Source: an uncultured delta proteobacterium
GTDB taxonomy: Bacteria; Myxococcota_A; Polyangia; Polyangiales; JAFGIB01
Assembly: GCA_963778655.1 (NCBI GenBank)
Contig: CAVZVA010000009.1
Location: forward strand, 906,235-970,234
Length of the DNA stretch: 64,000 bases
Direction: 5' to 3'
The position numbers were made by a program, and so were the translations under genes. Numbering within the stretch: the first letter of the stretch is position 1; every line of letters begins with the position of its first letter. Positions 1 to 28,560 of this stretch are shown here, one piece after another. The notes below the pieces were generated by a model that had not been told where the DNA came from, ran no database searches, and saw only the letters and a list, made by a program, of their open reading frames with translations.

Positions 1-50
1 CCATCGCCAAGCTCGTGCTCGAGAAGCTCGCCTCCGGGGGCGCGGGGTGA
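1..50 (+). CDS. 3' end of an unidentified CDS (5' part lies outside the window)
   Basis: Frame 3 reads ...IAKLVLEKLASGGAG and ends at TGA 48-50. Every codon ends in G or C, as in the real genes here. The product cannot be identified from 15 residues. Confidence 0.3.
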   Translation, partial: IAKLVLEKLASGGAG

Positions 51-130
51 GCTCGGCGCGCGGGCGTCCGTGGCGGACGCCCGCGACCCCCCTTGATCTA
101 CAGCCGCCCAGCCTGGAACATGAGGGGACC

Positions 131-355
131 ATGGAAGAGACATTGAGAGAGATCGTGTCCAGAATCGGCGAGATCGATCCCGACTTCGGCGCCGACGCGC
201 GCCTGACCGACGATCTCAACATCGATTCGTTTCGCGCGGTGGAGATCGTGTTCGAGATCGAGCGCAGCTTCAGCATCAAGGTACCTGATACCCGCTACAG
301 CGAAGTGCAGACGTTTGCCGACATGGTCAAGCTGATCGGCGAGCTCACGGGATGA
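131..355 (+). CDS. acyl carrier protein (stand-alone ACP)
   Basis: ATG 131 is preceded by GAGGGGA. The 74-aa product has the carrier-protein core LTDDLNIDSFRAVEIVFEIE, with the phosphopantetheinyl Ser in the DS motif. The ORF-track start at 47 only adds an Arg/Pro-rich leader. Confidence 0.85.
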   Translation: MEETLREIVSRIGEIDPDFGADARLTDDLNIDSFRAVEIVFEIERSFSIKVPDTRYSEVQTFADMVKLIGELTG

Positions 356-406
356 GGCGATACGACGTGATGCGATGAACGCTTCAGCTCGACAGGGAGG
401 CCCCGC

Positions 407-1627
407 GTGCCGCGACGGGTGGTGATCACCGGCTGCGGGGTGGTCACCGCTGCCGGAACCGAGCTCGACGCGTTCTGGCAAGGGCTGCTCGACGGAACGT
501 GTCGGATCGGGCCATTGCGCGGATTCTCGGCCCCGGGCATGGAAGGGCTGTACGGCGCGGAGGTCGCGCTGCCGGAGGCCGATCGCCTGCCGCCCAGCGT
601 GGACGAGGACCCCCGGCGTGCGCGCTGCCTGGAGCTTGCTCTGGCCGCAGCGCGTCGCGCGCTGCGCGACGCTGGCGCGATCGACCGGCGCGACCTGTTG
701 ACGCCTGCCGGCATGGTGTTCGGGACGACCCTGGGCGAAGAGCGCCAGATCGGTGACCTGACGGAACGCAAGCTGGCCGCCGGCGGGTCTGTTGCCGACG
801 CCGGCTTCTTCACCCGCAGCAACAACCATCGGCTCGCCGCGCTGATCGCGGCACAGCACGGGCTGAGCGGTCCGGTGTTGCTCGCCGCCACGGCGTGCAG
901 CTCTGGCAACACGGCGCTCGCGCTGGCCTACGACGCGCTTGTCGACGGCGAGGCCGAGCTGATGCTGGCCGGGGGCGCCGACACCTTCACGCGCCTGATC
1001 TACTGCGGGTTTCAGCGCATGGGGGCGCTGTCCAAGGCGATCTGCAAGCCGTTCGACAAGAACCGCGACGGGGTCGCGTTCGGCGAAGGCGCCGGCGCGC
1101 TGGTGCTCGAGGAGCTGGAGCACGCCCGCGGCCGCGGCGCGCAGATCTACGCCGAGCTCGCCGGCTACGCCTTCAGTAACGACGCCCACCACATCACCGC
1201 GCCCGGGCCCGAGGGTGAGGGCTTCGTGCGCGCCATGCGCGACGCGCTCGCTCGCACCGGGACCCGCCCGCAGGACGTGAGCTACGTCAGCGCGCACGGT
1301 ACTGGGACGCCCTACAACGATCGCGGTGAGTGCCAGGCGATGCAGGCGGTCTTCGCAGAGCATGCGCCGCGCGTGCCCATCAGCTCGATCAAGTCGATGA
1401 TCGGCCACACCAACGGAGCGGCGAGCGCGATCGAGACGGTCGCGTGCGCGCTCGCGTTGCGTCATCAGGCGGTGCCGCCGACGGCCAATCTGGTCGAGCC
1501 GGAGCCGGGCTTCGATCTCGATTTCGTGCCGGGCAAGGGGCGTTCGACGCCGGTGCACACGTGCCTGAACCTCGCGGCCGGTTTCGGCGGCGCGAACGTG
1601 TGCCTGGTATTGAAGGAGGCGCCGTGA
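407..1627 (+). CDS. beta-ketoacyl-ACP synthase (FabF / type II KS-alpha-like)
   Basis: GTG 407 lies 6 nt after AGGGAGG. KS catalytic motifs are present: ATACSSGN (Cys), SAHGTGTPYND (His) and GHTNGAAS (His). Confidence 0.9.
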   Translation: MPRRVVITGCGVVTAAGTELDAFWQGLLDGTCRIGPLRGFSAPGMEGLYGAEVALPEADRLPPSVDEDPRRARCLELALAAARRALRDAGAIDRRDLLTPAGMVFGTTLGEERQIGDLTERKLAAGGSVADAGFFTRSNNHRLAALIAAQHGLSGPVLLAATACSSGNTALALAYDALVDGEAELMLAGGADTFTRLIYCGFQRMGALSKAICKPFDKNRDGVAFGEGAGALVLEELEHARGRGAQIYAELAGYAFSNDAHHITAPGPEGEGFVRAMRDALARTGTRPQDVSYVSAHGTGTPYNDRGECQAMQAVFAEHAPRVPISSIKSMIGHTNGAASAIETVACALALRHQAVPPTANLVEPEPGFDLDFVPGKGRSTPVHTCLNLAAGFGGANVCLVLKEAP

Positions 1628-2835
1628 GCTGGCCGCGCCCCGACGACCCGGCCGTGGTGGTCACCGGGGTGTCCGTGTTGACGCCGCTGGGCGACGGGTT
1701 GCAGACGCTGGCCGGGGCGCTCGGCGAAGGGCGCGATGCGATCGCGCCGGCCTCCGATCCTGCCGGCGGGGCCGAGACGAGGATCGCGGGCTTCGAGGCC
1801 GCCCGCTATGCCAACGTGCGCGGCATGCGGGTCTATCACCGCACCACGCAGCTCGGGATCTGCGCGACCAAGCTTTCGCTCGATGACGCCGGCCTGAAGC
1901 CCGAACAGCTCGAGCCGGCGCGGTTTGGCGTGATCAATGCTTCGACCTACGCGCACCTGGACACGCTGCTGGCCTACGACGAGGGTCTGGTCACGCTCGG
2001 CATCCAGCGCACCAACCCGACGCTCATGCCGCTGGGCTTGCACAGCGCGCCGGGCGCAGCCGTCGCGCTCGCCTTCGGCGCCAAGGCCTTCTCGGTCACG
2101 CTCAGCGACGGTGGCGCGGCCGGTCTCGCAGCCCTCGGCCTGGGCGCGCGCATGCTGGCGGACCGGCGCGCCGATGTCTGCGTCGTGGTCGGGGCGATGG
2201 GGCCGTGCCGCGAGCTGGCGGCCTCCGCGACGGAGGCGTCTTTCGCGGCGAGCGCGGAGGAGTTCGCGGTGCTCGACGAGCGCGCGTGCGGGCTGGCCTT
2301 CGGCGAGGCCTCGGCCGCGCTGGTGCTGGAGCGGGCCGACAGCGCGCACGCACGCGGCGCGCAGCCGAAGCTCGCAATCGCTGGGCTGGCGAGCGCGTTC
2401 GCGCCCGAGCCTGCGGGGCTGGATCACGCGCTCGGACGAGCCTGTGCGGGCTCCCTGCGCCTGGCGGGAATCGAGCCGGGCCAGCTCGCGCTGGTGAGCA
2501 CGGGCGCCAACGGCCTCCGCGCACACGACGATGCGCACGCTCGCGCGTTGCTCGCGCTGCTGGGACCGGCCGCCGGCTGCACGCCACTGTTGGCTACCAA
2601 GGCCAATCTTGGCGAGACCTTCGACGTCTCGGGGCTGCTGCAGAGCGTCGCGGCCCTGGCCGCGCTGCGCTTGGGCGTTGCGCCCCCGATCGCGCGCCTG
2701 CGCCGCCCGCGCGCGCCGGGCCTGTGCTGCCCGCGCGAGCCCACCGCGCTGGCTCCGGGCCGCGCGCTGGTCACCGCTACCTCGTTCACGGGCGCCTGCT
2801 CCGCGCTGGTGCTAGAGCAGCCCGATGAGCGCTGA
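1624..2835 (+). CDS. non-catalytic KS paralogue (KS-beta / chain-length-factor-like partner)
   Basis: GTG 1624 overlaps the KS stop (GTGA at 1624-1627). The protein is a thiolase-fold paralogue. The Cys position reads SDGGAAG, the HGTGT position reads GANGL, and the GHxxGA position reads NLGETF. The ORF-track start at 1330 lies inside the KS gene. Confidence 0.75.
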   Translation: MSWPRPDDPAVVVTGVSVLTPLGDGLQTLAGALGEGRDAIAPASDPAGGAETRIAGFEAARYANVRGMRVYHRTTQLGICATKLSLDDAGLKPEQLEPARFGVINASTYAHLDTLLAYDEGLVTLGIQRTNPTLMPLGLHSAPGAAVALAFGAKAFSVTLSDGGAAGLAALGLGARMLADRRADVCVVVGAMGPCRELAASATEASFAASAEEFAVLDERACGLAFGEASAALVLERADSAHARGAQPKLAIAGLASAFAPEPAGLDHALGRACAGSLRLAGIEPGQLALVSTGANGLRAHDDAHARALLALLGPAAGCTPLLATKANLGETFDVSGLLQSVAALAALRLGVAPPIARLRRPRAPGLCCPREPTALAPGRALVTATSFTGACSALVLEQPDER

Positions 2836-3583
2836 AGCAACCCCGAGCCAGGATCGCGTCGCGATCGTCACCGGAGGGTCGCGCGGCATCGGCAAGGCGG
2901 TGGTCGAGCGGCTGTGCCGTGCGGGCGTGGAGGTCTGCTTCACCTTCCTCAGCAACGAACAGGCGGCCGACGCGGTCGTGCAGGCGCTGCGCGGCGAAGG
3001 CCACAGGCTGCGCGCCGTGCGCGCGGACTCGCGCGACAAGGCCGCGCTCGCGGCGCTCGTGGAGGGCGTGCTGGCGGAGCGCGGCAAGCTCGACGTCCTG
3101 ATCAACAACGCAGGCGTCACCGCCGATCGACTTCTGCCCATGATGAGCGACGACGAGTGGTCGAACGTGCTCGACACCAGTCTCAATGGGCTGTTCGGCG
3201 CCACGCGGCCGGCAGCGCGCCAGATGATGCGCCAGCGCGCCGGCCGCATCGTCAACCTGACCTCGGTCTCGGGGGTGATCGGCATCGCGGGGCAGACCAA
3301 CTACTGCGCGGCCAAGTCGGCGATCATCGGCTTCACCCGCGCGCTGGCCAAGGAGCTCGCCCCGTGGGGCGTGTGTGCGAACGCCGTCGCGCCGGGCTAC
3401 GTCGACACCGATATGCTGGGCTCGTTCACGCCCGCGCAGCGCAAGGCGGCGCTCGAGCGCGTGCCCATGCGCCGCTTCGCCAGCGCCGACGAGATCGCTG
3501 CGCTGGTCGCCTACGTGGCGTTGGAAGCGCCGTCATTCCTCACCGGACAGACGCTGGTGATCGACGGCGGCATGAGCACGTAG
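2825..3583 (+). CDS. 3-oxoacyl-ACP reductase (FabG-like SDR)
   Basis: ATG 2825 overlaps the upstream stop (2833-2835). Motifs: TGGSRGIGKA (NADP-binding), NNAG, and the S...YCAAKSA catalytic YxxxK. Confidence 0.9.
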   Translation: MSAEATPSQDRVAIVTGGSRGIGKAVVERLCRAGVEVCFTFLSNEQAADAVVQALRGEGHRLRAVRADSRDKAALAALVEGVLAERGKLDVLINNAGVTADRLLPMMSDDEWSNVLDTSLNGLFGATRPAARQMMRQRAGRIVNLTSVSGVIGIAGQTNYCAAKSAIIGFTRALAKELAPWGVCANAVAPGYVDTDMLGSFTPAQRKAALERVPMRRFASADEIAALVAYVALEAPSFLTGQTLVIDGGMST

Positions 3584-5901: not shown

Positions 5902-7545
5902 TCAGGCCCACCAGCGCAAGTGCCCGAATAGCAGGGCATCGGCCGCAAGCAGCAGGTTGGTGACCGCGTGCGCCGCGATCGCGTCGGTCACGCGCCCGCG
6001 CCGCTGTTGCGCCAGGGCGTAAGCCAGACCTGCGCAGGTGCCGGCGAGCCAGTCTGCATGCAGGATGCCGAATCCGAGCGACGATACGACCCATGCTACC
6101 CAGGCGATCCGTCGCGGGTCCGCCTCGGTGAAATCCGCGCGCATGAGCCGTCGCAGCAGGTAGCCCCGAAACGCAAGCTCTTCGGCGATCGGCACCACCA
6201 CGCACGCTCCCAGCGCGCGTCCCGCGAGCCATACGCCAGCACGCACTGGCCCCAACATGCGCAGTCCCTGGCGCAAGTCCCGCACCGCTGCTTCGTCGCC
6301 GCCCGCGGCTAGCAGATACCAGAGCCCGAACACCGCCACGCCGATCCCAACGCTCTGCCAGTGCAACCCCAGCGGCAACTCGCGATAGCGTGAGCGTAGC
6401 GCGAACAGCACCGCGAGCACACATGCCGCGCGCACCGGATAGAGCCAGTCGAACCCGATGTTGAGCAAGCCTGTGGCCAATCCGGTCGCGAGCAGCGTCA
6501 GCAGCGGCAGCAGATAGGCGGTCGCCGAGTTTGTATGCCCCTGGTTCGCGGTGTCGCCTTCGCTGGCAAAATAGCGTGCATTGCGCGCTATCGCGACGAA
6601 GCCCAGCGCAACGGCCGAAAAGAGGAGCCAGCCGGCCTTGGAGTGGAATCCACCGATCGCGAGTTGCGGCGATAGGTAGGTTCCGACGAGGATCAGCGCG
6701 GCGATGCGGACGATGTTCGCCATCCACACAGTGATCACGGCGATTGGAAGCAGCGCCAACGTGCGGGGGAACCGCAAGTGTCGACGTTCGATGAGCATGT
6801 ACCCAGACAGCAAGACCACGATCAGGCCGATGCCCTCGAATCCAGAGCAAATGGGTGCGACCTGCACGGCGAAGTGCGCGGTGCCAATTGTCAACGCGGC
6901 CGGTCGGACGAGGACGTCGTCCACGATCGGTCGCAGCACCGCTGCAACCGCGGAGAGCGTGATCGACGCCATCTTGTGCCAGCCTACCGAGGACAGCTCG
7001 CCGCCAACCCAGGCGGCCATGCCCGCAGCCACCCCTACACCGAGCGCGGCGGCGAACACGCGCCGCAGCTGTGAGAACGCACGCCAGGGCAGCGCGAGCG
7101 GTAGCCACGTGCCGAACACCACCAGGCCCGATAACAGCCAGCCGATTCCCCAACCGAGGCCCGGTCGAACCCCCGGATCGCCAGCGAAGACGTGGCGCGT
7201 GACGAGCAAGAACAGGGAGTAGGCGGCTGCATGCACGGCCGCGAGCGGCCATGGGTTACCCTCGGATCCGGATCTCGGCGAAAGCCCGGACAGCGCGCGC
7301 CGCAGCGTGGGCCCCATCAGCGCGAGGGCCGCCGCGGTCGCGACCAGCGCAATTGAGCCGAGGTCGCCGACGTAGTGCAGGCCCGACAGCAGGTCGCCGT
7401 TTGCTTGCAGCGACTGGGCGTCGAACAGGAAGCTGATCAGCAGGTACTCGCCGAGCAGCAGTGCCCCCGCCGCAAGCAGGCGCCTGACCAGAGGCCTGCC
7501 TTGCGCCGGCGACACTTTGAGGTCTTCGGGCGAAGGAAGGGCCAC
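5902..7545 (-). CDS. exosortase fused to a CPBP (CAAX-type) intramembrane protease domain; matches the 'exosortase E/protease, VPEID-CTERM system' architecture
   Basis: The N-terminal polytopic part carries the exosortase Cys/Arg/His signature: APICSGFEG (Cys codon 6847-6849), ANIVRIAALILVG and GFHSKAGWLLF. The C-terminal part carries CPBP motifs: EELAFRGYLLRRL, FGILHADW and HAVTNLL. The gene starts 21 bp downstream of the substrate gene. Confidence 0.8.
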   Translation of the reverse strand: MALPSPEDLKVSPAQGRPLVRRLLAAGALLLGEYLLISFLFDAQSLQANGDLLSGLHYVGDLGSIALVATAAALALMGPTLRRALSGLSPRSGSEGNPWPLAAVHAAAYSLFLLVTRHVFAGDPGVRPGLGWGIGWLLSGLVVFGTWLPLALPWRAFSQLRRVFAAALGVGVAAGMAAWVGGELSSVGWHKMASITLSAVAAVLRPIVDDVLVRPAALTIGTAHFAVQVAPICSGFEGIGLIVVLLSGYMLIERRHLRFPRTLALLPIAVITVWMANIVRIAALILVGTYLSPQLAIGGFHSKAGWLLFSAVALGFVAIARNARYFASEGDTANQGHTNSATAYLLPLLTLLATGLATGLLNIGFDWLYPVRAACVLAVLFALRSRYRELPLGLHWQSVGIGVAVFGLWYLLAAGGDEAAVRDLRQGLRMLGPVRAGVWLAGRALGACVVVPIAEELAFRGYLLRRLMRADFTEADPRRIAWVAWVVSSLGFGILHADWLAGTCAGLAYALAQQRRGRVTDAIAAHAVTNLLLAADALLFGHLRWWA

Positions 7546-7566: not shown

Positions 7567-7824
7567 CTAGGGCGCGACTCGCCGTCGCCGAGAACGGTCC
7601 ACTGCCAGCGCGATACCCCCGAGGAGCAAGGCCAAAGCCTCTCCCCCCTGGGTGGGGTTGAGCTCCGGTACCGAGGGCACCTGCTCGCCGCGCTGCAAAC
7701 TCCAGCGCCGCCATGTGTGGTGAGCGCGGAGGCTGTGTTGCGGCGGTTCGGCCAGACCGCTAGCTGGCAGCACCATTGAACCCAGGGTCCAGAGAACGAG
7801 TCCTGTGCCGATATACTTTTTCAT
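7567..7824 (-). CDS. small secreted protein with a VPEID-CTERM/PEP-CTERM-type C-terminal sorting signal (putative exosortase substrate)
   Basis: ATG 7824 is preceded by GAGGGGA. The signal peptide is MKKYIGTGLVLWTLGSMVLPASG. The C-terminus reads VPSVPELNPTQGGEALALLLGGIALAVDRSRRRRVAP, that is, a VPE motif, a TM helix and an Arg cluster. The ORF-track start at 7926 adds a non-hydrophobic leader. Confidence 0.75.
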   Translation of the reverse strand: MKKYIGTGLVLWTLGSMVLPASGLAEPPQHSLRAHHTWRRWSLQRGEQVPSVPELNPTQGGEALALLLGGIALAVDRSRRRRVAP

Positions 7825-7880
7825 GATGTGTCCCCTCATTCTAGGAGGTCCGTAGGACTCATGGTCCTCAAAGGGAGATT

Positions 7881-7899
7881 CTTGCACGCTTCGTGCCAA
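7881..7899 (-). promoter_or_regulatory. candidate sigma-54 (-24/-12) promoter for the substrate/exosortase operon
   Basis: The minus strand reads TTGGCACGAAGCGTGCAAG. This is TGGCACG-N4-GTGCA against the consensus TGGCACG-N4-TTGCW, with exact GG-N10-GC spacing. The GC lies 60 nt upstream of ATG 7824. Confidence 0.5.
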
Positions 7900-8146
7900 G
7901 TCGTTCACTGCGCGATCATGCGCCACTCCAAGATACGATCACGCAAGCAAGGGCGACGAATCGCCTCTAGGATCCAGGAGCGACGGTATCACTCTCAACA
8001 CAGGCTCGCAAATCGTTCGCCCAGCTGACGCAGAGCCTGCACAACCCTGTTGAAGTACTGGCCCTTGTGTTTCCGTGCGGAAACCGGCGCTCAGAATCGC
8101 GGCTTGCCTGCCGTCCGACAGGAGATCGAGCCGACCACACATTGGC

Positions 8147-8227
8147 CTGCGCAGTTGGGGGAGCAATCGTCGTGATCAGGCTGCGCCGCTTCTGCGCGGC
8201 TGGCTGCACAGTCTGCGCAGCTGCGCA
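8147..8227. promoter_or_regulatory. cluster of CTGCGC repeats including a perfect 14-bp palindrome (candidate enhancer/UAS)
   Basis: CTGCGC starts at 8147, 8181, 8192, 8213 and 8221. CTGCGCAG (itself palindromic) is at 8147-8154 and 8213-8220. TGCGCAGCTGCGCA at 8214-8227 is a perfect palindrome about 55 bp upstream of the plus-strand -24 element. Confidence 0.35.
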
Positions 8228-8282
8228 CCGACCCGTGGCGAAGGCCAGCATTCAAGCCCCAGCAAAGCCCCTGTGATTTGGG

Positions 8283-8299
8283 TGGCACGGTCCATGCTT
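8283..8299 (+). promoter_or_regulatory. candidate sigma-54 (-24/-12) promoter for the glycosylphosphotransferase/export operon
   Basis: TGGCACGGTCCATGCTT is TGGCACG-N4-ATGCT, with exact GG-N10-GC spacing. The GC lies 55 nt upstream of ATG 8352. Confidence 0.5.
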
Positions 8300-8351
8300 A
8301 TGATTGAAGCCAGTATCTCCTTCAACCCGTTCCTCCTGAGGCTTTGCTGCC

Positions 8352-9761
8352 ATGCGTGACCCCCGCGGTGTGATTCGGCCGTACGAAACGGAAGTCGAGT
8401 TTGCCTCGCGCCTTGCGGACATGGTGTGGATCAGCGTCGCGTTGTTCATCGTGTCGCTGGTCTTCGGTGAGCCGTGGCACAACGGTGAGAGCCTCGCTGC
8501 CGCTGCGGCTTCCATCCTCTTCTACCTGTTCGGCGAGGCTAGCGGGCTCTACCGCCCCCAGCGTGGGGAGCCCGTGCGCGAAGAGCTCATGCACCTGGCG
8601 ACCGCCTGGCTGGGGGTCGTCGCGATGCTCCTGCTCGTGGCGTTCTTGACCAAGACCTCGGCGCACTATTCCCGAAAGATGATGGCCGCGTGGGTGGTCG
8701 TTGCGCCGGGAGCACTTTGGGCTTGGCGCGTCGTCTTGCGCATCATGCTGCAGGAAGCGCGCGTGCGCGGCTACAACAGCCGGGCCGCGGCGATCGTCGG
8801 GGTGTCGGCGGTCGGCGAGCGGTTGGCGCGCCGCATTGCGCTGTCGCCTTGGATGGGCGTCAGGCTGGTCGGGTTCTTCGACGACCGCGGCATCGAACGG
8901 TTGGAGCCGAACAACGAGGTGCAGATCGAAGTGCAGGGCGGCTTCGACGCGCTGGTCGACAAGGCTCGCCGTCGCGAGGTCGACATGGTGTACATCGCGC
9001 TGCCACCTCGCGCCGAGCCGCGCATCAACGCCCTGGTGCGGCGTCTGGCAGATACCACCGCTTCGGTGTACTTGGCGTACGACTTCGGCGGCTATGATCT
9101 CCTCAGCGCGCGCTGGTCCAGCGTGGGCGAGGTGCCGGTCATGAGCGTGGTCGAGGACCCGTTTCACGGCGTCGATGGCCTCGTCAAGCGTCTCGAGGAC
9201 ATCGTGATGGCCGGCATCATCCTCGGCATCATCGCGGTTCCGATGGCGGTGATCGCACTGGCCGTCAAGCTGACCTCTCGCGGTCCAGTGTTCTTCCGCC
9301 AGCGCCGATATGGCCTCAACGGCGAGGAGATCCGCGTGCTCAAGTTCCGCACCATGACCGTGTGCGAGGACGGCAACGAGGTCGTGCAGGCGACGCGCAA
9401 CGACAAGCGGGTCACCCCGATCGGGGCGATCTTGCGGCGCACCTCGCTCGACGAGCTGCCGCAGTTCCTCCAGGTGCTCTCGGGCACCATGTCGATCGTC
9501 GGGCCCCGGCCGCACGCGGTCGCCCACAACGAGCAATACCGCTCGCTCATCCGCGGCTACATGCGGCGGCACAAGGTCAAGCCCGGCATCACTGGTTGGG
9601 CGCAGGTCAACGGCTGGCGGGGTGAGACCGATACCGTCGACAAGATGGAGAAGAGGGTCGAGTTCGACCTCGAGTACATCAATCGCTGGAACCTCGGCCT
9701 CGACCTCAAGATCATCCTCTTGACCGTTTGGACCGTGCTGCGCAACCGCAACGCGTACTGA
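8352..9761 (+). CDS. exopolysaccharide polyprenyl-phosphate glycosylphosphotransferase (WcaJ/EpsZ-type priming sugar transferase)
   Basis: The 469-aa protein has N-terminal TM helices, a central Rossmann-like region (AAIVGVSAVGERLARR) and the C-terminal bacterial sugar-transferase domain. Domain motifs: KRLEDIVMAGIILGI, VFFRQRRYGLNGEEIRVLKFRTM, SLDELPQFLQVLSGTMSIVGPRP and PGITGWAQVNG. Confidence 0.88.
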   Translation: MRDPRGVIRPYETEVEFASRLADMVWISVALFIVSLVFGEPWHNGESLAAAAASILFYLFGEASGLYRPQRGEPVREELMHLATAWLGVVAMLLLVAFLTKTSAHYSRKMMAAWVVVAPGALWAWRVVLRIMLQEARVRGYNSRAAAIVGVSAVGERLARRIALSPWMGVRLVGFFDDRGIERLEPNNEVQIEVQGGFDALVDKARRREVDMVYIALPPRAEPRINALVRRLADTTASVYLAYDFGGYDLLSARWSSVGEVPVMSVVEDPFHGVDGLVKRLEDIVMAGIILGIIAVPMAVIALAVKLTSRGPVFFRQRRYGLNGEEIRVLKFRTMTVCEDGNEVVQATRNDKRVTPIGAILRRTSLDELPQFLQVLSGTMSIVGPRPHAVAHNEQYRSLIRGYMRRHKVKPGITGWAQVNGWRGETDTVDKMEKRVEFDLEYINRWNLGLDLKIILLTVWTVLRNRNAY

Positions 9762-9916: not shown

Positions 9917-10987
9917 ATGTACCCATTCCCTCGGGCACGGATTTCGCTCAGCAAGAAGAGCGCGCTGGGATGCCGAGCCACGTCACCGGCGCCGTCGCAT
10001 TGGGCCCTTTCTGCCACGGCACTTGCGGCGATCGTCGCCGCGGGCTGTGCGTCGTTTCCGCCGCCGCCTATTCTGCACTCGGGCATGGGCACCGCCCCAG
10101 GCATCGCCAACGATCGGCCGCCGGATGGCTCCTTGCGCGCGGGGGACCAAGTCTTGATCGATGTCATCAGCGGGGGCCGGGTACGTCAACGCCGAGGCGT
10201 GGTGGATGCGCGGGGCCAGTTGCACGCAGCCTCCGAGCGCGATGTCGCCGTTGCGGGCTTGTCCCTGCCTCAGGCCGAAAGACGGATCGCCGAGGCCGTG
10301 CATACCTCTGACAAGTTTGCCGAAATCGAGTTGCACCTGTCGCCCCGCTCTCCCCGTCGCATGAGCGCATTCGGTGCGTTGACCAGGCCCGGGTACGTCA
10401 CGCTGACTCCGGGAATGCGCGTGGTCGATGCCATCGCGGCCGCGGGCGGGGTGCAGAGGGCGTCGGCGTCCATCCTCGGCGGAGGGCCGTTGCCGGTGCC
10501 GGTAGGCGATCTCGAGGAAGCCGTGTTGATCCGCAACGGCAAGGCCCTGCCCATCAACGTCGATCAGGCGTTGCGTGGGCAGCGTCGCCACAACGTGTAC
10601 CTGCACGCTGGCGACCAACTCTACGTTCCGCCTGCCACGGACAACGGGGTCAGCGTCTTGGGGCAGGTGGGCGCCCCCGGAATCTTTCCCCACCGCCACG
10701 GTCTGCGATTGACCGAAGCGCTCAGCGAAGCCGGCGGCATCACGATCGGCGGCGACAAGGACGACATCCGTCTGATCCGCGGACCGGTCGAGGCGCCCGC
10801 GGTGTACAGGGCGAGCCTGACGGCCATTGCCGAGGGCAAGCGTAGAGACGTGCGGCTACGATCGGGGGACGTGATCTTCGTCACCGACCACCCAATGGAA
10901 GACCTGGGCGAGGTGATGAGGCTCGTCATCCCATTCGTCGCGATCGGCGTGAGCGCGCTGGTCGTCGCCCTGATCGTGTCGCAGTGA
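9917..10987 (+). CDS. polysaccharide export protein (Wza/Poly_export + SLBB-like), lipoprotein, copy 1
   Basis: A lipobox-like AAIVAAGCAS is present. Poly_export/SLBB-type segments: GDQVLIDV, GQLHA...VAVAGLSLPQAERRI, VSVLGQVGAPGIFP and LRLTEALSEAGGIT. It ends in a hydrophobic helix (VIPFVAIGVSALVVALIV). Confidence 0.8.
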   Translation: MYPFPRARISLSKKSALGCRATSPAPSHWALSATALAAIVAAGCASFPPPPILHSGMGTAPGIANDRPPDGSLRAGDQVLIDVISGGRVRQRRGVVDARGQLHAASERDVAVAGLSLPQAERRIAEAVHTSDKFAEIELHLSPRSPRRMSAFGALTRPGYVTLTPGMRVVDAIAAAGGVQRASASILGGGPLPVPVGDLEEAVLIRNGKALPINVDQALRGQRRHNVYLHAGDQLYVPPATDNGVSVLGQVGAPGIFPHRHGLRLTEALSEAGGITIGGDKDDIRLIRGPVEAPAVYRASLTAIAEGKRRDVRLRSGDVIFVTDHPMEDLGEVMRLVIPFVAIGVSALVVALIVSQ

Positions 10988-11053
10988 GCGATTGACCGAG
11001 CGGTTGGGCCTGGCAAGATGCATGGCCGGAGCTCCCGCGGAGGAGATGCAAGC

Positions 11054-12076
11054 ATGTGGCGCCGGATCTGCAGCATCGTGTGCATCTACAGCGTGGTCGC
11101 CAGCTGTGGCGGACTGCCCCAGGCGCCCGCCTACCCGCGCAAGGGAGACGGTTTCTCGGGACCCAATCCTCTGGCCCGCCCCGGGCTTCCCCGGGATCGC
11201 GCTCCGGCGCTCACGCTCCAACCCGGCGACGTGCTGAGCATAGACGTCGCGTCCGAGCAGACCAAGACCTGGACGGGCATCGTGGTCGACGCTACCGGGC
11301 AAGTACATCTGCCGATGGCGGGCGACGTCGAAGTCGGCGGTCGGGGCTTGAGTGAGGCCGAGAGAAGGGTGCAAGAAGCCCTGCGCAAGTTCGACCGCTT
11401 CGTGCAAGTCACGATCGAGCTCACGGACGCCAAGGGGCAGCATGCCACCGTTCTCGGCGCGGTCACCACGCAGGGCTCGGTTCAGCTCATCCCAGGGGCG
11501 CGGGTGGCAGACGTGATTGCGAGCGCCGGGGGACCCCTGACAGCGCCCGCAACTCCGGGCTCCCCGCCGCTATCCATGGCAGACCTGGACGGAGCGGTGC
11601 TGATTCGAGGCGGCAAGCCGCTGCCGATCAGCATCGCCAAAGCGCTACGAGGCGACCCCGCGCACAACGTGTACGTCCACCCCGGAGACCACATCTACGT
11701 GCCGCCCGCGCTGGGCTCGAGCATCAGCGTGCTGGGGCAAGTCGGTACGCCGCGCGTGTTTCCGCACCATGCAGGGCTGCGGCTCACGCAGGCACTCGCG
11801 CTGGCGGGCGGCGTCACCGTGGGCGCCGACAAGAGCGATATCCGCGTGATTCGGGGCACGCTCGAGGCGCCGCGTGTCTACCGCGCCAGCTTGCGTGCCG
11901 TCGTCGACGGCGATTCGCACGACGTGCTGCTGCAGCCGGGCGACATCATCTTCGTGACCGACCACCCGATCGAGGACATTGGAGAGGTCGTCGGGCTGGT
12001 TGCGCCCGTGCTCTCGCTCGGTCTGAGCAGCGCGTTGCTGGCCGTTACGCTCAACCGCACCACCACGAGCCACTGA
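11054..12076 (+). CDS. polysaccharide export protein (Wza/Poly_export + SLBB-like), lipoprotein, copy 2 (tandem paralogue)
   Basis: ATG 11054 lies 9 nt after GGAGGAG. The signal/lipobox is MWRRICSIVCIYSVVASCGG. The protein is colinear with copy 1, for example ISVLGQVGTPRVFPHHAGLRLTQALALAGGVTVGADKSDIRVIRG...GDIIFVTDHPIEDIGEV. The ORF-track start at 11018 is possible but lacks an RBS. Confidence 0.8.
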   Translation: MWRRICSIVCIYSVVASCGGLPQAPAYPRKGDGFSGPNPLARPGLPRDRAPALTLQPGDVLSIDVASEQTKTWTGIVVDATGQVHLPMAGDVEVGGRGLSEAERRVQEALRKFDRFVQVTIELTDAKGQHATVLGAVTTQGSVQLIPGARVADVIASAGGPLTAPATPGSPPLSMADLDGAVLIRGGKPLPISIAKALRGDPAHNVYVHPGDHIYVPPALGSSISVLGQVGTPRVFPHHAGLRLTQALALAGGVTVGADKSDIRVIRGTLEAPRVYRASLRAVVDGDSHDVLLQPGDIIFVTDHPIEDIGEVVGLVAPVLSLGLSSALLAVTLNRTTTSH

Positions 12077-12091: not shown

Positions 12092-14128
12092 TCAGGGCGG
12101 GGTTCCTTCCGCCGCCGGCGCCTGCCGTTTCAGCAGCCGCCGGTATTCGACCGCATGCGATCCGGCCGGATAACTCTCGAGGTAGCGATTCATGGCTCGT
12201 TCGGCCCTGGGCTGCTCGCCCATCGCGCGGTAGGTCGCGATCAGCAGCTCCAGCTCGCGGGCGCTGCTCGCTTTGTCCTTGAGCACGCGCACCACGCAGT
12301 CGTTGTCACCGCGTGACAGACAGTCGAGCGCCTGTTGCAGCCGAGCTTGAGGTGCGTCGGCAGCAGCTGGCGCCGGCCGCGCGGCGGGTGGCGCCTGGGG
12401 CGGGGCGGACGGTTGTATGGCCGGCGCGGGTGTGGGGCTCGGCTCTGGCGGCGCGGGGCTCGGGGCGCTGGCTCTCGGCGGTTGGCTCGGCTCCACCCCC
12501 GAGAGCGCCGTGGTTTGAGCGGCTCGCGCCGGTCCGTGGCTCGAGGTGTGCGGCACGCCGCTCGGCGGCGCGTGCGGCGCCTCGTGTGTCGAGGAGGAGC
12601 CCGCGGAGGAACCTCTGGGCGGTTCGTTGTTGGGCGGTGCCAGCGCCTGGGATGACCCGCTGCCCAGCGTCGGTGCGCTGGCAGCCGGCTGGCCGGCGTG
12701 AGCCGCGTGCGTGGGGGCTGCCGAGGCCGGCGCTGCCGCCGCCGGAGCAGGTAACGGTGCTGGAGGAGCCTTTGGCGCGGACGCTGCAGGGCTCGGGGCG
12801 GGCTCGGGATGACTGACGACCTCTTGCCCCGCGCCGACCGTGCCTCCGCCGAACACGCGGGCCAGCCCTGCCGCCGCGGCTAGCCCCGTACCGAGAATCA
12901 CCCACAGCATCCAGCGCGATCCCTCTGAGTGGCGATCGACATCCGGGAGCATGAACGGGGTTTCGTCGAGCGCGTGCTCATCGTCGCCTGAGGGCAGGGT
13001 CACGCGGGAAGCAGCCTCGCGCACGGTGGTGGCACTCGGCGCGCGCTCCCCAGGGTCGCTGCCGGGGGCCACGGGTCTTGCCGCCTGTGCCCGCAGATCA
13101 TCGGTGCGCCCCGGACCAGGAGGTCGATCGCTGGTCACACGCGACGGCCGATCGCTGTCGCCCGCGCCGGGGTGGCCGGTTCGCGCGGAGAGGCTTTCGG
13201 GTGGGGGCCGGCTGCTGTCTCCCGTCGGGCTGAGCGGGACGGACCGTTCCGGCGCCGCGGGGCCATTGCTCCCAAGCGAGGCGCCACGCCGGGTTCGATC
13301 CAGCCGCTCCCGCAGCGTGCCGGTCGCCGCGCCCGGCGACAACGATCGGGGCAGCAAGGGCGAGGGGCCGGCGTTCCTACGGGTCGCGGCCGCCGGCCGC
13401 GGCGGCAGGGGCGACCGCGGTGGGGGCCGTGGGGAAGGCCAAGGGCTGGGGTCGGCCGGGGCGCGCGAGGCGCGCGCCGGGGGCGAGGACGAAATAGGCT
13501 TGTTGGCGGCGACCTCTACAGTCGGGCTGGCGGGCAAGGGGGAGGGAGGCAGCGGCGAACGCGGGGCGGCTTTGGGCTGCGGAGGCGAGGACTCGGGTCG
13601 CGTGGCCGCGACCCCGCGCAGGGTCGGAGAGCGGCGCATCAGGGCGCTATCGATGATCTGGCGCGTCCCGGGGCTCGGCTCGCCCGGAGTGGCCAGGATT
13701 GCGAACGGCTGGGCGGCCGTGTCCGATGCCCGCACCCGCGGTGGTGGCCCGCTGCTGGTGCGGCGGTCCGAATCGGTCCGATTACGCTGGCGCTCGATCA
13801 GGGCGCGTTCGACGATGCGCTCCACGGCCTCGCGTCCGTCCGCCTCCAGGCGCACAAAGCGCACGCCCATGCCGGCAGGGCCACGGGGATCGCTCTTGTT
13901 TCGCTGCCAGACCACGCGGCCGGTTCCGCGGAAGTAATCGTCGGCCACGTCCGCCGCGCATTCGAAGCGGATCAGGGCGCCGCGCGGGGACGGGCGAGGG
14001 GTGAGGATGAACATCCCGCCCGGGGAAATGTCCCGGCACTCGCCTTCGCGTGGCTCGGTCATCGTCGGCTCGCGGTACCGAGCCACGAGCGATACCTGCA
14101 GGCGGCCTTCTTTTCGGGTGTCGTTCAC
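12092..14128 (-). CDS. PilZ-domain (c-di-GMP receptor-type) single-pass membrane protein with Pro/Ala-rich linkers and a TPR-like C-terminus
   Basis: GTG 14128 overlaps the rmlA stop (GTGA at 14128-14125). Both PilZ motifs are intact: RKEGR (RxxxR) and DISPGG (DxSxxG). About 330 aa of Pro/Ser/Ala-rich low complexity follows, then a TM helix ([21 protein letters not shown]), more Pro/Ala-rich sequence, and a helical C-terminus ([30 protein letters not shown]). The ORF-track start at 14227 would overlap rmlA by about 100 bp. Confidence 0.7.
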
Positions 14129-15009
14129 GCGTTGGGGAGGTCGTCGAGCAGGGACATCAGGTACTGCCCGTACGCGGTCTTGCTCAAGGCAGTGCCCAGT
14201 TGCTCCAGCTGGGCAGTCGTGATCCAACCATTGCGGAAGGCGATTTCTTCAGGGCAGGCGAGCTGCAGGCCCTGGCGCACCTCGATCGTATGAACGAATT
14301 GGGCCGCGTGCAGCAGGGCGTCCGGGGTGCCGGTGTCGAGCCAGGCAAAGCCGCGCCCGAGCCTCTCCAGGTGGAGCGCTCGGCGCTCGAGGTAGAGCCG
14401 GTTCAAGTCGGTGATCTCGAGCTCTCCGCGGGCGGAAGGTCGCAACGAAGCCGCCAAGTCGCTGGCTTGGCCGTCGTAGAAGTACAGGCCGGTGACAGCG
14501 TAGTGCGACTTCGGCTTGGCCGGCTTCTCCTCGAGGCTGATCACGCGGTCCTGCGCGTCGAGCTCGGCCACGCCGTAGGCCTCGGGGTCTTTGACCCAGT
14601 AGCCGAATACCGTGGCCCCGGTCTCGCGCTTGGCCGCGCGCTCCAGCACGCCGCTAAGCCCGCCCCCGTAGAAGATGTTGTCGCCCAAGACCAGGGCGCA
14701 CGGTCGGCCGCCCAGAAACTCGCGCCCGATCAGGAACGCTTGAGCCAGGCCGTCCGGGCTGGGTTGGACCGCGTACGAGAGGTCGAGCCCCCACTGGCTG
14801 CCGTCCTGGAGTAAGGCACGGAACGCGCTCTGTTCGTGGGGCGTGGTGATGACCAGGATGCGCCGGATCCCCGACAGCATCAGCGTGGTGAGCGGGTAGT
14901 AGATCATCGGCTTGTCGTAGACCGGCATGAGCTGCTTGCTCACGCCACGAGTCAGCGGGTGCAGCCTCGTGCCTGTGCCTCCCGCCAAGATGATCCCCTG
15001 TTCAATCAT
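14125..15009 (-). CDS. rmlA: glucose-1-phosphate thymidylyltransferase
   Basis: [40 protein letters not shown] is the canonical RmlA N-terminus. The protein is full length at 294 aa. Confidence 0.95.
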
Positions 15010-24195: not shown

Positions 24196-24504
24196 GGCTT
24201 CGGGACGTTAGGCATTCTTTCGCGCTCAGGCAATGGGCTCCAGGGCGACATCCCACGTTGAGGACGCGCCACCAGTTGCTCGCAAGCGCCCGCACGCGAT
24301 CGCCGCGAGGTCCCTCGCCGCGGACGCGTCTCGAGCCCGTCGCGGGGTATCGACCTCCCCTCAGAAGTGGGGCGCGCGCACGTCCAGACCTACATGCGCG
24401 CGTCGCAGCGTCCACCTGGGCCGGCCGGACACACGTTCCCCGCGCCGTGCCGATCACATCGCGGCGTCGCAGTGCGTGCTGTAGAATTGAAGCCGAGTCC
24501 GCGG

Positions 24505-27500
24505 ATGGCCAACAGCCAGGTTCTAGCCAGCATCATACCCGGCAGCCTGATTGCCGGACGCTACACAGTGGAACACGCCCTGGGCAAAGGGGGTATGGGC
24601 ACGGTCTACGCCGTGCGCGACGCCTCGTCCGGGCGCTCGCTGGCGCTCAAGTACCTCCAGCGCGAAGCCGCCGTGGAGAAGGGGCCGGCGGCCGCGCTGT
24701 TCCAGCGCGAGTATCACACGCTCGCGCACCTGCGGCATCCGCGCGTGATCCAGGTGTACGACTACGGCGTCGACCACGGCCGGCCGTTCTACACGATGGA
24801 GCTGCTCGACGGCAGCGATCTGCGCGAGCTCGCGCCGGTGCAGTGGCCCCGCGCCTGTCGCTTGCTGCGCGACGTGGCGTCGTCGCTGGCGCTGCTGCAC
24901 TCGCGCCGCTTGCTCCATCGCGACCTCAGCCCACGCAACGTGCGCTGCACGCGAGACGGGCAGGCCAAGCTGATCGACTTCGGCACGATGGCGCCGATGG
25001 GTCTGGCCAAGGACGTGGCGGGCACGCCGCCGTACATGGCGCCTGAAGCGATCCACGGCCAGGTGCTGGACGCGCGCACGGACCTGTACGCGCTGGGCGC
25101 GCTGGCGTACTGGACGCTGACCGGGTACGACGCCTATCCGGCGCGCGACGCGCGCGAGCTGCGCCAGCTGTGGCCGCGCGCCATCCTGCCCCCGTCGGCA
25201 TTCGCCAAAGGCGTGCCCGAAGCGCTCGACGCGCTGGTGATGTCCCTGCTCAGCCTCGACCCCCAGGCGCGACCCAGCCACGCCGCCGAGGTGATCGAGC
25301 GCCTGACCGCGGTAGCGGCGCTTCCGCCCCTGGACCAACCCGAGGTCGCGCGCGCCTATCTGACTTCCCCGACGCTAGTCGGGCACACCGAGACCCTGAA
25401 CAGTTTCCACAGGCGTCTGGTGCGCGCCGTGCGTGGTCGCGGCAGCTCGGTGCTGGTGCGGGGCAGCGCGGGCAGCGGCCGCAGCCGCCTGCTGCAAGCC
25501 CTGGTGCTCGAGGCCAAGCTCAACGGCGTGCTGGTGCTCGCGGCGGACGCGGAGGACGCGCAGCGCGGCGAGCTGGGCGTGCTGCGCGCGCTGATCGAGC
25601 GCTTGGTCGAGGCGGCTCCCGATCTTGCGGCGAGCAGCTTCGAGCCCTACGCCGCCGTGCTGGGCGGGCTCTTTCGCGCGCTTCACGCGCGGCTTCCCAA
25701 CGCCCGGCCGACCAGCCTGCTGGCCGACCGGCGGGCACAGCTCGCGCGCGAGCTGCAAGCCGTGCGCGAGTGGCTGCTCGCGGTGTCGCGCGAGCGTGCG
25801 TTGATGGTGGCCATCGACGATGCGGACCATGCAGACGAAGCCTCCCGCGCGTGTCTGACGCTGCTGGCCGGAGACGCGCCGCATGCGTGTCTGGTAGTCG
25901 CGGCGGCGCTCGAGAGCGAGCAGGGCCACGAGGCGCTGGAGCTGCTGGCGGCCGGCGCCGTGCACGTCGCGCTGCGGCCGCTCGACGCGGAGCAATCGCT
26001 GCGGCTGCTGCGTTCCGTGTTCGGCGACGTACCGCAGCTGCAGGTGGTCGCGGACTTCATCCACACGCTCGCCCAGGGCAATCCGCGCACGATCATGGAG
26101 CTCGCGCAGTATCTGGTCGACCGCAGCATCGCACGCTACGAGCGCGGCACCTTTACCTTACCCGAAACGCTGCGCGATCAGGCCTTACCCAAAAGCATCG
26201 AGCAGGCGCTGTCCACGCGGATCGCGTCGCTCAGTCCTCCGGCGCGCGCGCTGGCCGAGGCGCTCTCGCTGGTGACCGATCACGGCCATCTCGAGCTCGA
26301 CGAGGTGGTCGAGCTCTCGGGTCCCCAGGGCCCGAAGCAGGCCTATGGCGCCGTCGACGAACTGGTCGCCTCGCAGGTGCTGGTCGCCGCAGGCAGCAAG
26401 CACCACCTCAGCCACCGAGGCCTGGCCCAGGCGCTGCAACGCAAGCTGCTGCCCGAGCGCCGGCGTCTGCTGCACCTGCGCTTGGCGGCCGTGTACGAGG
26501 ATCGCGCCATGCGCGCGCACGGGGCGGACGCCCGGCTGCTGGGCGCGTATCACCGCTACCTGGGCGGCGACATGGACGCCTGCCTGGCGGCAATCGCCAG
26601 CGAGAGGCTGATCGCCGATTCGGCGTTTCGACGCACGGCCGAGGCGGCCCAGATGTACGACGCTTGCGTCACGCACTTCGAGGCCGCCGGCTTGCCGCCC
26701 TCGCGGCTGTATCCGCTGCGCAAGGCGCTGCTGTGGCTCTCCTCGAGCACGGATCCCACGATGATCAAGCACGCCGGGCCCGCGCTGGCCCAGCTCTGTC
26801 ACGACTCGGGTCGGATCTACGTGGAAGAGATCACCGACGAGCCCGATCCGGTGGCACGGATCCGCCGCTGCATCGACCGCGCCCGCAGCACGTACGAACG
26901 CGCCGACCCCTCGCAGCGCGGGCTTACGCCGGTCGAGGCGATCCGTGAGCTCGGGACGTGCACGCTGATGCTGACCGAGACGTATGTGCTCAACAACGAC
27001 GCCGCGGCGCTCGCGCGCTTGCCCGACGCGATCGATCCCTTCCGGCCGCTCTCCGCCGTGCTTGGCCTGCTGCGCGAGCTGGCGAGCCAGGCGCTCGAGG
27101 CGCTGCGCGGCAAAGACGTCGCCCAGCGCCGTCTGGCCTTGCTCGAGCGGCTCGATCTCCCCCTCGAGGGCCTCGAGCCCAGGTCCCAGCATGCGATTCG
27201 GTGCAGCTTGATCTACTGGCACGCCATGGACGAGGCCGCGCTCGGCAAGCCCGCGGTGCTGGAGCGCGCCGCGGAGCTCGAGCGGCATCCGCTCTACGCG
27301 CCGCTGGGCGCCCAGGTGCGCAGCGTGTTCCATCTGTTCTCCGGCAACGAGGAGGAAGCCGAGCGCTGGCAGCGGCGCCGCGAGCGGCTGTCGTTGCAGA
27401 CCCCGTTCTCGAACTTCGCGAGCACCCGCGGGATCATTCACGAGGCCTTCGGCTACTACCTGTGCGGCAGCGTGCTCGGGATGCGGCGCACGCTGCAGGC

Positions 27501-28560
27501 TGCCAGCAAGCTGGCGGCGCGCCATCCCGGCTGGAAGCCGCTGTTGCGCACGGTCGAGGGGATGTACGCCCTGCTGCGCGGGGAGCCGGCAAACGCGCTC
27601 GTGCTTCTCGACGCCGAGCGCGCGCTATCGGGGCGCGTGCGCGCGTTACTTGCGCTGGGGCGCGCCGAAGAGGCGCATGCGCTGGCGCAGCGAGGGCTCA
27701 ACGATCCGGGTCGGGAGGGCGATCACCCGTTGTGGTTGCACCGCCTGCGCGCGGCCGCGGCGCTGGCACGCTCGGCGGCGGGCGACCCGGCCGGCGCGGC
27801 GCACGCGCTCGATGGCGACATCGAGCGTGCGGAGGCCGCGGGAGTCGGCGGCATGCTGCTCTGCGGCATGCACGAGGCGCGCGCCCGAATCGCGATCCAG
27901 ATGGACGATCGCAGTGCCTTTCGGCGGCACGTGCGCAAGCTCGGCGCGACCTACGGCCGTGGCACCTCCGCGCTGCGCGCGCGCTACGAGCAGCTCGGCG
28001 TGGCCGCGCGCCAGGCGCTGCTCTCCATGCCTCCGCCGCGCTCCGTGCCGGCGCCGAGCTCGCACTTTTCCGGCGCCTCGTCGGTGCGCTCGCTGCTCGA
28101 CTCGGCGATGACCCCCTCACAGCGCTTGCAGCTGGCGCTGCAAATCCTGGCCGACCAGGCGAGCTCGGCGCGCGGCTTTCTGTTCGCCATGCACGGCTCC
28201 GGTATGCGCGTGGCAGCCACGTTGGGCGGAGGGCCGCCCCCGGAGGGTCTGGACGACATGCTGGCCTTCTATCTCAGCGCAGAGCTGGACTCGGGTCCGG
28301 CAGCGCCCAGCGCCGCCGCGAGCATCACCGGCACCTTCGCGAGCGCGCCCGACATGGTGGCGTGGATCAACGACGGCCACAGCCTCTACTACCCGGTGCT
28401 GCTGAGCTGCGTGCGGGGCGAGCGCCGCGTGATCAGCGGCGTTGCCGTGCTCGCGCTGCCGGTCCAGCGCGACCCCAAGCTGCCGCCGGAGCTCGTCTCC
28501 GAGCTGAGCGGCGCGCTGCTCGATGCCGGCGACGTAGTGGGCGTGCAGGCGGCCGACTGA
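24505..28560 (+). CDS. Ser/Thr protein kinase fused to an AAA/STAND NTPase-like region and a long helical (TPR-like) C-terminus, paralogue 1
   Basis: ATG 24505 gives MANSQVLASIIPGSLIAGRYTVEHALGKGGMGTVYAV. Kinase motifs: LALKYL, HRDLSPRNV, DFG and PPYMAPE. The P-loop-like segment is GSAGSGRSRLL. About 900 aa of helical repeats follow. Confidence 0.88.
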   Translation: MANSQVLASIIPGSLIAGRYTVEHALGKGGMGTVYAVRDASSGRSLALKYLQREAAVEKGPAAALFQREYHTLAHLRHPRVIQVYDYGVDHGRPFYTMELLDGSDLRELAPVQWPRACRLLRDVASSLALLHSRRLLHRDLSPRNVRCTRDGQAKLIDFGTMAPMGLAKDVAGTPPYMAPEAIHGQVLDARTDLYALGALAYWTLTGYDAYPARDARELRQLWPRAILPPSAFAKGVPEALDALVMSLLSLDPQARPSHAAEVIERLTAVAALPPLDQPEVARAYLTSPTLVGHTETLNSFHRRLVRAVRGRGSSVLVRGSAGSGRSRLLQALVLEAKLNGVLVLAADAEDAQRGELGVLRALIERLVEAAPDLAASSFEPYAAVLGGLFRALHARLPNARPTSLLADRRAQLARELQAVREWLLAVSRERALMVAIDDADHADEASRACLTLLAGDAPHACLVVAAALESEQGHEALELLAAGAVHVALRPLDAEQSLRLLRSVFGDVPQLQVVADFIHTLAQGNPRTIMELAQYLVDRSIARYERGTFTLPETLRDQALPKSIEQALSTRIASLSPPARALAEALSLVTDHGHLELDEVVELSGPQGPKQAYGAVDELVASQVLVAAGSKHHLSHRGLAQALQRKLLPERRRLLHLRLAAVYEDRAMRAHGADARLLGAYHRYLGGDMDACLAAIASERLIADSAFRRTAEAAQMYDACVTHFEAAGLPPSRLYPLRKALLWLSSSTDPTMIKHAGPALAQLCHDSGRIYVEEITDEPDPVARIRRCIDRARSTYERADPSQRGLTPVEAIRELGTCTLMLTETYVLNNDAAALARLPDAIDPFRPLSAVLGLLRELASQALEALRGKDVAQRRLALLERLDLPLEGLEPRSQHAIRCSLIYWHAMDEAALGKPAVLERAAELERHPLYAPLGAQVRSVFHLFSGNEEEAERWQRRRERLSLQTPFSNFASTRGIIHEAFGYYLCGSVLGMRRTLQAASKLAARHPGWKPLLRTVEGMYALLRGEPANALVLLDAERALSGRVRALLALGRAEEAHALAQRGLNDPGREGDHPLWLHRLRAAAALARSAAGDPAGAAHALDGDIERAEAAGVGGMLLCGMHEARARIAIQMDDRSAFRRHVRKLGATYGRGTSALRARYEQLGVAARQALLSMPPPRSVPAPSSHFSGASSVRSLLDSAMTPSQRLQLALQILADQASSARGFLFAMHGSGMRVAATLGGGPPPEGLDDMLAFYLSAELDSGPAAPSAAASITGTFASAPDMVAWINDGHSLYYPVLLSCVRGERRVISGVAVLALPVQRDPKLPPELVSELSGALLDAGDVVGVQAAD

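Follow-up and report, generated by a model that had tools for sequence, protein, structure and literature searches.

It is proposed that a 527-bp spacer in the DNA of an uncultured bacterium, lying at positions 7825-8351 of the 64,000-nucleotide stretch analysed here (the window), controls two operons that diverge from it and depend on an enhancer, one of them encoding an exosortase E (XrtE) together with its presumed substrate and the other encoding enzymes of polysaccharide priming and export. We consider this assignment likely, judging from the motifs in the spacer and from their retention in related loci. The spacer separates the divergent start codons at 7824 (minus strand) and 8352 (plus strand), and it contains two outward-facing matches to the sigma-54 -24/-12 consensus TGGCACG-N4-TTGCW, which are assigned as follows:

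7898-7883, minus strand: predicted sigma-54 (-24/-12) promoter of the operon of a small VPEID-like gene and xrtE, reading TGGCACGAAGCGTGCA
8283-8298, plus strand: predicted sigma-54 (-24/-12) promoter of the wcaJ-wza-wza operon, reading TGGCACGGTCCATGCT

Both sites have the GG-N10-GC core and one mismatch in the 12 specified positions of the consensus, the sole mismatch in each being the first base of the -12 element. The position, spacing and shared mismatch of the pair are as described in the sequence-only reading of this region, and the distances to the start codons given there (60 and 55 nt) were right to within 2 nt, the minus-strand motif ending 58 nt before the ATG at 7824 and the plus-strand motif 53 nt before the ATG at 8352. 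Ribosome-binding sites are present ahead of both starts (GAGGGG and GAGG). When the GC is taken as -12, transcription is predicted to begin near 7872 from the minus-strand promoter and near 8309 from the plus-strand promoter, with leaders of about 48 and 43 nt, respectively. The promoters were assessed by consensus mismatches, shuffles and comparative conservation rather than with a formal position weight matrix. With at most one mismatch allowed, the consensus has three matches in the 64 kb, where 0.66 are expected from dinucleotide shuffles; each of the three precedes a gene and points towards it, so that every strong match is placed like a promoter. The third match, TGGCATGGGGGTTGCA at 43723-43708 (minus strand), sits in another divergent spacer about 90 nt 5' of the ATG of a secreted DUF2330 gene (41774-43615, minus strand); because TGYGCA sites of the kind described below are missing upstream of it, it is probably a separate sigma-54 promoter responding to a different activator.

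The lower GC content attributed to the spacer is real: the fraction is 0.60 over its whole length and falls to 0.535-0.58 at 7700-8100, compared with 0.65-0.72 in the flanks. Neither a sigma-70-like promoter nor a terminator was found in the spacer, and it contains no Rfam match at E<=1 and no open reading frame (ORF) with coding-like GC content at third codon positions. A perfect 10-nt inverted repeat (CAGCAAAGCC / GGCTTTGCTG, at 8260-8269 and 8340-8349) flanks the plus-strand promoter and ends just 5' of the wcaJ start codon; since its 8260-8269 arm lies 5' of the predicted transcription start, the repeat cannot make an RNA hairpin.

Orthologous loci allow a comparative test. A protein search yielded a clade whose XrtE proteins are 53-60% identical to that of the window and which is represented by five independent loci, L020, L021 (of which L022 and L023 are further copies), L024, L025 and L070; scans of genome and metagenome contigs returned only XrtE relatives of at most 52% identity, nearly all of them at 32-46%. 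The divergent arrangement of wcaJ and the small gene-xrtE pair is kept in all five loci, along with the PilZ and wza genes where the contig reaches that far, and the full order (PilZ-wza-wza-wcaJ, divergent from small gene-xrtE) is found in L020, L021, L024 and the P0005 and P0009 contigs. Both outward-facing sigma-54 sites are likewise present in five of five, with the following sequences in three of the loci:

L020: small-gene site TGGCACGCGGTTTGCT; wcaJ site TGGCACGAGCCGTGCT
L025: small-gene site TGGCACGCTGATTGCT; wcaJ site TGGCACGGGACGTGCT
L070: small-gene site TGGCACGTCGCGTGCT; wcaJ site TGGCACGCTGCGTGCT

Counted from the T of TGG to the ATG, all promoters of the clade lie on the correct strand 60-113 nt before the start codon, and those of the small genes in the five orthologues lie 60-88 nt before it. 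Given a background of 5.3e-5 matches per strand-nt in the same loci, the ten promoter zones together should contain about 0.05 matches by chance, against ten observed, so that the phylogenetic footprinting suggested as a check of the initial observation found every promoter site kept. The consensus of the 12 promoters, including those of the window, is TGGCACG-N3-cgTGCTta, which indicates that the mismatch shared by the two window sites reflects a preference, found throughout the clade, for G as the first base of the -12 element. Outside a few elements the spacers do not align, the invariant parts of the MAFFT alignment being confined to promoter, upstream sites and ATG. As the regions could not be aligned, MAFFT misplaced the small-gene-side promoters, and promoter-anchored ungapped views were used instead. 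An inserted metallophosphoesterase gene separates wcaJ from the small gene in L020 (4506-5333) and in the P0005 contig; a remnant of an L020-type metallophosphoesterase gene was sought in the window spacer and none was found.

Upstream of the wcaJ promoter lies a dense group of short repeats, in which the following elements can be distinguished:

8147-8228, no strand: whole repeat cluster, six 8-mers with at most one mismatch from CT(C/G)CG(C/G)AG, starting at 8147, 8181, 8192, 8204, 8213 and 8221
8205-8219, no strand: conserved 15-bp dyad TGCACAGTCTGCGCA, TGCACA-GTC-TGCGCA, with the family pattern TGCRCA-N3-TGYGCA
8193-8198, no strand: conserved extra half-site TGCGCG (family tTGYGCG), 12 bp upstream of the dyad, start to start

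The sequence-only reading had pointed out five copies of CTGCGC within 81 bp of this group. The copies are there (starts at 8147, 8181, 8192, 8213 and 8221, all on the same strand) and form the densest such group in the window, a maximum that only 3 of 300 whole-window dinucleotide shuffles equal; the 14-bp palindrome TGCGCAGCTGCGCA at 8214-8227 is also perfect, but it is not the element that has been conserved. Two of the copies, those at 8192 and 8213, coincide with conserved positions and the others do not, the cluster 8-mers at 8147, 8181 and 8221 being specific to this genome. The conserved unit is instead the TGYGCA/TGCRCA hexamer, above all in the 15-bp dyad, together with the TGCGCG at 8193-8198. 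The cluster at 8147-8228 is the window maximum for TGYGCA and for half-sites of the Nla28 type as well as for CTGCGC, levels reached in 11 of 300 and 1 of 100 shuffles for the former two. The half-site at 8193-8198 forms with 8213-8220 a direct repeat spaced 21 bp, TCTGCGCGGCTG / TCTGCGCAGCTG (at 8191/8212).

The dyad stands at a fixed place. Its centre in the window is 71 bp 5' of the T of TGG in the wcaJ promoter, or about -97 from the predicted start, which is a typical position for activator sites of the NtrC family. The distance is exactly 71 bp in the window, L020, L024, L025 and L070 and is 81 bp in L021, one helical turn more. The 63 nt between dyad and promoter are fixed in length in five of the six loci and show 31% identity between loci, which is the random level; a spacer constant in length but not in sequence is what one would expect of an activator that has to occupy a given side of the helix with respect to the closed complex of sigma-54. 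The exact dyad pattern has a single match in the 64-kb window and a single match per clade locus, and none in 62 other loci (398 kb). The promoter-anchored ungapped consensus of the six loci reads tTG.GCG.c....TGCACA...TGtGCA, and the same columns are invariant in alignment A1. An unbiased comparison of k-mers in the orthologous spacers with those of their own loci gives as the top entries by count TGCACA (14 vs 1.4 expected), TGCGCA (19 vs 2.5) and CTGCGCA (19 vs 2.1), with the -24 element ranking beside them, and TGYGCA/TGCRCA occurs 33 times in these spacers compared with 6.2 in dinucleotide shuffles, of which the maximum in 1000 was 15. We propose that the dyad at 8205-8219 is the core binding site of an enhancer-binding-protein dimer. 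Enhancers of the NtrC glnAp2 type feature TGCAC...GTGCA dyads about 100-140 bp upstream of a sigma-54 promoter, act in a helix-face-dependent manner and gain from multiple sites that aid oligomerisation; the arm spacing is TGCAC-N5-GTGCA here and TGCAC-N7-GTGCA in the NtrC consensus, and the targets here are not genes of nitrogen metabolism.

In favour of the view that these motifs are chance or compositional matches in GC-rich DNA, devoid of regulatory meaning, CTGCGC shows no enrichment over the whole window (202 copies vs 217 expected), and the cluster statistics of the window taken alone are only moderately rare, at 1-4% of shuffles. We nevertheless give this explanation virtually no credence, because all 12 promoter sites and the dyad have kept their places in six loci with spacers that do not otherwise align, and the identities of the XrtE proteins and of the spacer given above show that the loci are not near-identical copies. 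The divergon under an enhancer-binding protein that was put forward from the window alone is thus supported in kind: both motifs behave like sigma-54 promoters of a divergent pair, and the repeat cluster between them contains a conserved presumed activator site.

It may also be asked whether the TGYGCA sites are targets of a regulator other than an enhancer-binding protein, such as a repressor or a nucleoid-type protein, with the sigma-54 promoters activated from other sites or from solution. Short GC-rich palindromes do serve many transcription-factor families, and a TGCGCG and a TGCGCC, 10 bp apart at 7909-7924, lie 11-26 bp directly upstream of the minus-strand -24 element, where a repressor would be better placed than an activator. 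The constancy of the dyad distance across a spacer of random sequence is, however, the signature of helix-face-dependent activation, and in L020, where the inserted gene parts the promoters by 1.2 kb, each of them retains hexamers of its own, which makes this alternative improbable in our view. The pair at 7909-7924 is too near the promoter for an activator site and is not kept in the orthologues; it could be a repressor-type position or a chance occurrence.

The upstream region of the small-gene promoter is less uniform. The orthologues have a pair of TGYGCA hexamers 21-22 bp apart, located 57-110 bp upstream of the small-gene promoter, and no 21-bp-type pair was found upstream of the corresponding promoter in the window, where the nearest thing to an activator site is the following:

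8043-8027, minus strand: weak candidate activator site for the small-gene promoter, TGTGCA-GGCTC-TGCGTC, degenerate, about 137 bp upstream of the -24 element

On the wcaJ side, the cluster of the window is enlarged to six half-sites. The retention of hexamers at each of the separated L020 promoters suggests that the ancestral state was two enhancers; the decay of the small-gene hexamer pair in this genome suggests that the promoter now probably draws on the wcaJ-side cluster. We therefore infer that a single enhancer is shared by both promoters in this genome.

No candidate for the activator itself is encoded nearby. Translation of the window in six frames revealed no GAFTGA, ESELFGH or GESGTGKE signature and no RpoN box, the Sigma54_activat domain is absent from the 36 window ORFs scanned, and a tblastn search with the NtrC central domain gave no match in the window, although the same query, as a positive control, found the activator gene of the more distant locus L055; the earlier statement that the window contains no regulator gene is therefore correct. 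The prsK, prsR and prsT genes were found neither in the window nor in the regions flanking the orthologous loci.

The last result bears on the attribution to a PrsR-type regulator made by the sequence-only reading. In the PEP-CTERM/XrtA systems, a cis-element consisting of a 17-mer (motif 1) ending in TTTACA, a spacer of 62.8 nt on average and a sigma-54 motif lies about 71 nt before the start codon (PMC1569441); it was linked by phylogenetic profile to PrsK/PrsR/PrsT and was found in Proteobacteria only (Haft et al. 2006, PMC1569441). A PrsK/PrsR-type regulon, in which the PEP-CTERM response regulator PrsR would bind the repeat cluster and activate both promoters, would account for the layout seen here: the substrate gene stands behind a large spacer, the presumed activator motif ends 63 nt before the sigma-54 promoter, the start codon follows after 50-90 nt and there is a link to exopolysaccharide. 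The components differ. The exosortase is an XrtE fused to a CPBP protease and not XrtA/EpsH (the XrtA model scores 32.5 bits, with a cutoff of 208), the substrate has a tail of the VPEL/VPEID kind and not PEP, the host belongs to Myxococcota and the motif is TGCRCA-N3-TGYGCA with no linked regulator gene. Neither TTTACA nor TGTAAA occurs in 7825-8351, motif 1 being tested by this hallmark hexamer only. We thus regard control by PrsR as very improbable, and the designation "PrsR-type" can be kept as an analogy and not as an identification. In Aquincola, pepA depends on RpoN and has a mapped start site, and the exopolysaccharide genes are reported to be RpoN-independent (PMC9850573); unlike that case, the polysaccharide priming/export operon described here has a second, divergent sigma-54 promoter of its own.

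A candidate closer to the host in taxonomy is Nla28, a starvation activator of Myxococcus xanthus whose half-site consensus, CT(C/G)CG(C/G)AG, was established by mutagenesis and gel-shift experiments (Ma et al. 2022, PMC9765219). If an Nla28 orthologue were the cognate activator, the locus would belong to an Nla28-like starvation regulon. The sequence CTGCGCAG (8147-8154 and 8213-8220) fits the half-site consensus exactly, and the two exact and four one-mismatch half-sites in 82 bp are the densest such group in the window. The likeness extends to the promoters: Nla28 sites are tandem 8-mers, clustered upstream of TGGCACG-N4-(T/G)TGCT, in a host of the same phylum, and the GTGCT variant of the -12 element is found at pilA and MXAN881 (PMC9765219). 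The published consensus is nonetheless loose, accepting sites with up to two mismatches and spacers from N3 to N67, and the orthologues of the window locus vary (TGTGCA, TGCACA) at bases that are fixed in it. A dyad of fixed spacing and phasing is not the architecture described for Nla28, and the promoters here are intergenic whereas Nla28 targets are mostly intragenic. The half-site match is only a lead and not an identification, and we think it unlikely that Nla28 is the activator.

The preferred reading of the spacer as an enhancer-dependent divergent control region can be put as a sequence of steps. Sigma-54 RNA polymerase would form closed complexes at both outward-facing promoters, the one at 7898-7883 driving the small VPEID-like substrate gene and xrtE and the one at 8283-8298 driving wcaJ and the two wza-like export genes. 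Both complexes would need an NtrC-family enhancer-binding protein that recognises TGYGCA hexamers and is encoded elsewhere in the genome; Myxococcota are rich in sigma-54 activators. This protein would bind the core dyad at 8205-8219 and the half-site at 8193-8198 one turn upstream, and the extra copies specific to this genome would probably aid its assembly into the active oligomer, which would loop the DNA to the promoters and open them with ATP. The small-gene promoter would probably be served by the enlarged cluster on the wcaJ side, at a distance of 250-330 bp, which would act in both directions as an enhancer shared by the two promoters, so that one signal would switch on the exosortase, its substrate and polysaccharide priming and export together. 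A more specific version, in which an unnamed enhancer-binding protein particular to the Polyangiales clade reads TGCRCA-N3-TGYGCA and co-activates the exosortase-E module and polysaccharide priming/export from a bidirectional enhancer, the two ancestral enhancers having merged here into one cluster serving both promoters, is offered tentatively, at somewhat less than an even chance.

Several points weigh against this reading. The window has no activator gene and no rpoN, nor do the orthologous loci have either of them within 6 kb, so that the hexamers may be bound by a factor of another kind than an enhancer-binding protein. The phasing is established in six loci only, and three of these (L020, L025 and L070) share some extra similarity in their flanks. 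The small-gene promoter of the window is without the hexamer pair of its orthologues, so that its route of activation is the weakest part of the argument. Finally, the more distant XrtE loci (35-46% identity, n=46) are mostly without sigma-54 sites and have only six weak sites upstream. This last comparison leads us to reject sigma-54 control as a general property of XrtE and indicates that the arrangement is specific to the clade and does not belong to the XrtE system as such.

Individual distant loci differ in this respect. L027 and L028 (43-46% identity) have neither the sigma-54 sites nor the gene order. Among 56 VPEID-like small ORFs, seven have a sigma-54 site within 200 nt, and four of these seven are in the Polyangiales clade. 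L055 (35% identity; 44-3035) has a partial sigma-54 activator gene and csrA upstream of a canonical VPEID-CTERM gene, which is preceded by TGGCACATCAAATGCT 78 nt before its ATG, with the activator gene 1.8 kb upstream. L033 (at about 1937) and L042 (at about 1940) have GGGCACGACT(A/C)TTGCT some 60 nt ahead of the first gene of a tandem VPEID array. These sites suggest that VPEID substrates have come under sigma-54 control in scattered cases beyond the Polyangiales clade.

The genes on either side of the spacer are the following:

7567-7824, minus strand: small secreted protein gene, 85 aa, first gene of the minus-strand operon, presumed XrtE substrate
5902-7545, minus strand: xrtE, exosortase E fused to a CPBP/CAAX-type protease, 547 aa; TIGR04162, 208.7 bits (cutoff 150), with PF02517 and PF09721
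8352-9761, plus strand: wcaJ-type priming glycosyl-phosphotransferase (undecaprenyl-phosphate glucose phosphotransferase), first gene of the plus-strand operon; TIGR03023, 543.7 bits (cutoff 410.75)
9917-10987 and 11018-12076, plus strand: two Wza-like polysaccharide export genes with Poly_export and SLBB domains
12092-14227, minus strand: PilZ-domain protein, 711 aa, with a long Pro-rich linker, of the myxobacterial TIGR02266 type

An exosortase E/protease fusion scoring above its cutoff and an adjacent VPEID-like substrate make this an XrtE/VPEID-CTERM sorting system. The 85-aa protein ends in a VPELNP tail followed by a hydrophobic transmembrane helix and RSRRRR; its best family is TIGR04161 (VPEID-CTERM) with 24.5 bits, below the cutoff of 33, and it has a weak match to PF27847. 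Its signal peptide, an invariant W(R/K)RW motif and the VPEL(D/N) tail are kept in the five orthologues (alignment A2), and it is the presence of VPEL(D/N) in place of the canonical VPEID that explains the TIGR04161 scores below cutoff. Since xrtE starts 21 nt past the small gene, the two are probably co-transcribed. The plus-strand operon stops before the PilZ gene, which is convergent to the wza genes and occupies the same position in L020 and the P0005 contig; this gene hints at an extra layer of cyclic di-GMP control over the same polysaccharide.

Elsewhere the window contains dTDP-rhamnose, ketosynthase, ketoreductase, polyketide synthetase and non-ribosomal peptide synthetase genes. Three large paralogous genes for Ser/Thr kinase-AAA_16 (STAND) fusions (24367-28560, 34812-38669 and 55862-59698) stand beside the polyketide/non-ribosomal peptide synthetase genes, and in several orthologous loci genes of the latter kind directly adjoin the xrtE locus. 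The aspartate-semialdehyde dehydrogenase of the window is 81% identical to a protein from a Polyangiales metagenome-assembled genome, which together with the gene content identifies the host as a Polyangiales myxobacterium (Myxococcota).

As a concept, the control region repeats what is known of the PEP-CTERM/XrtA systems; its kind is ordinary and the gain is incremental. We found no mention of VPEID-CTERM in the literature searched, so that how exosortase E systems are regulated appears not to have been described, and the two promoters, the 15-bp dyad and its 71-bp phasing constitute a first and directly testable regulatory model for an XrtE system. The absence of the dyad from 398 kb of unrelated loci makes it specific enough to serve as a probe for the regulator and its regulon in Polyangiales genomes, and if the clade does have a dedicated activator, the dyad could be used for phylogenetic profiling in the way that motif 1 led to PrsR. 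In this model the exosortase, the small protein that it presumably sorts and the initial steps of polysaccharide assembly would all answer to a single sigma-54 activator in an uncultured lineage of myxobacteria.

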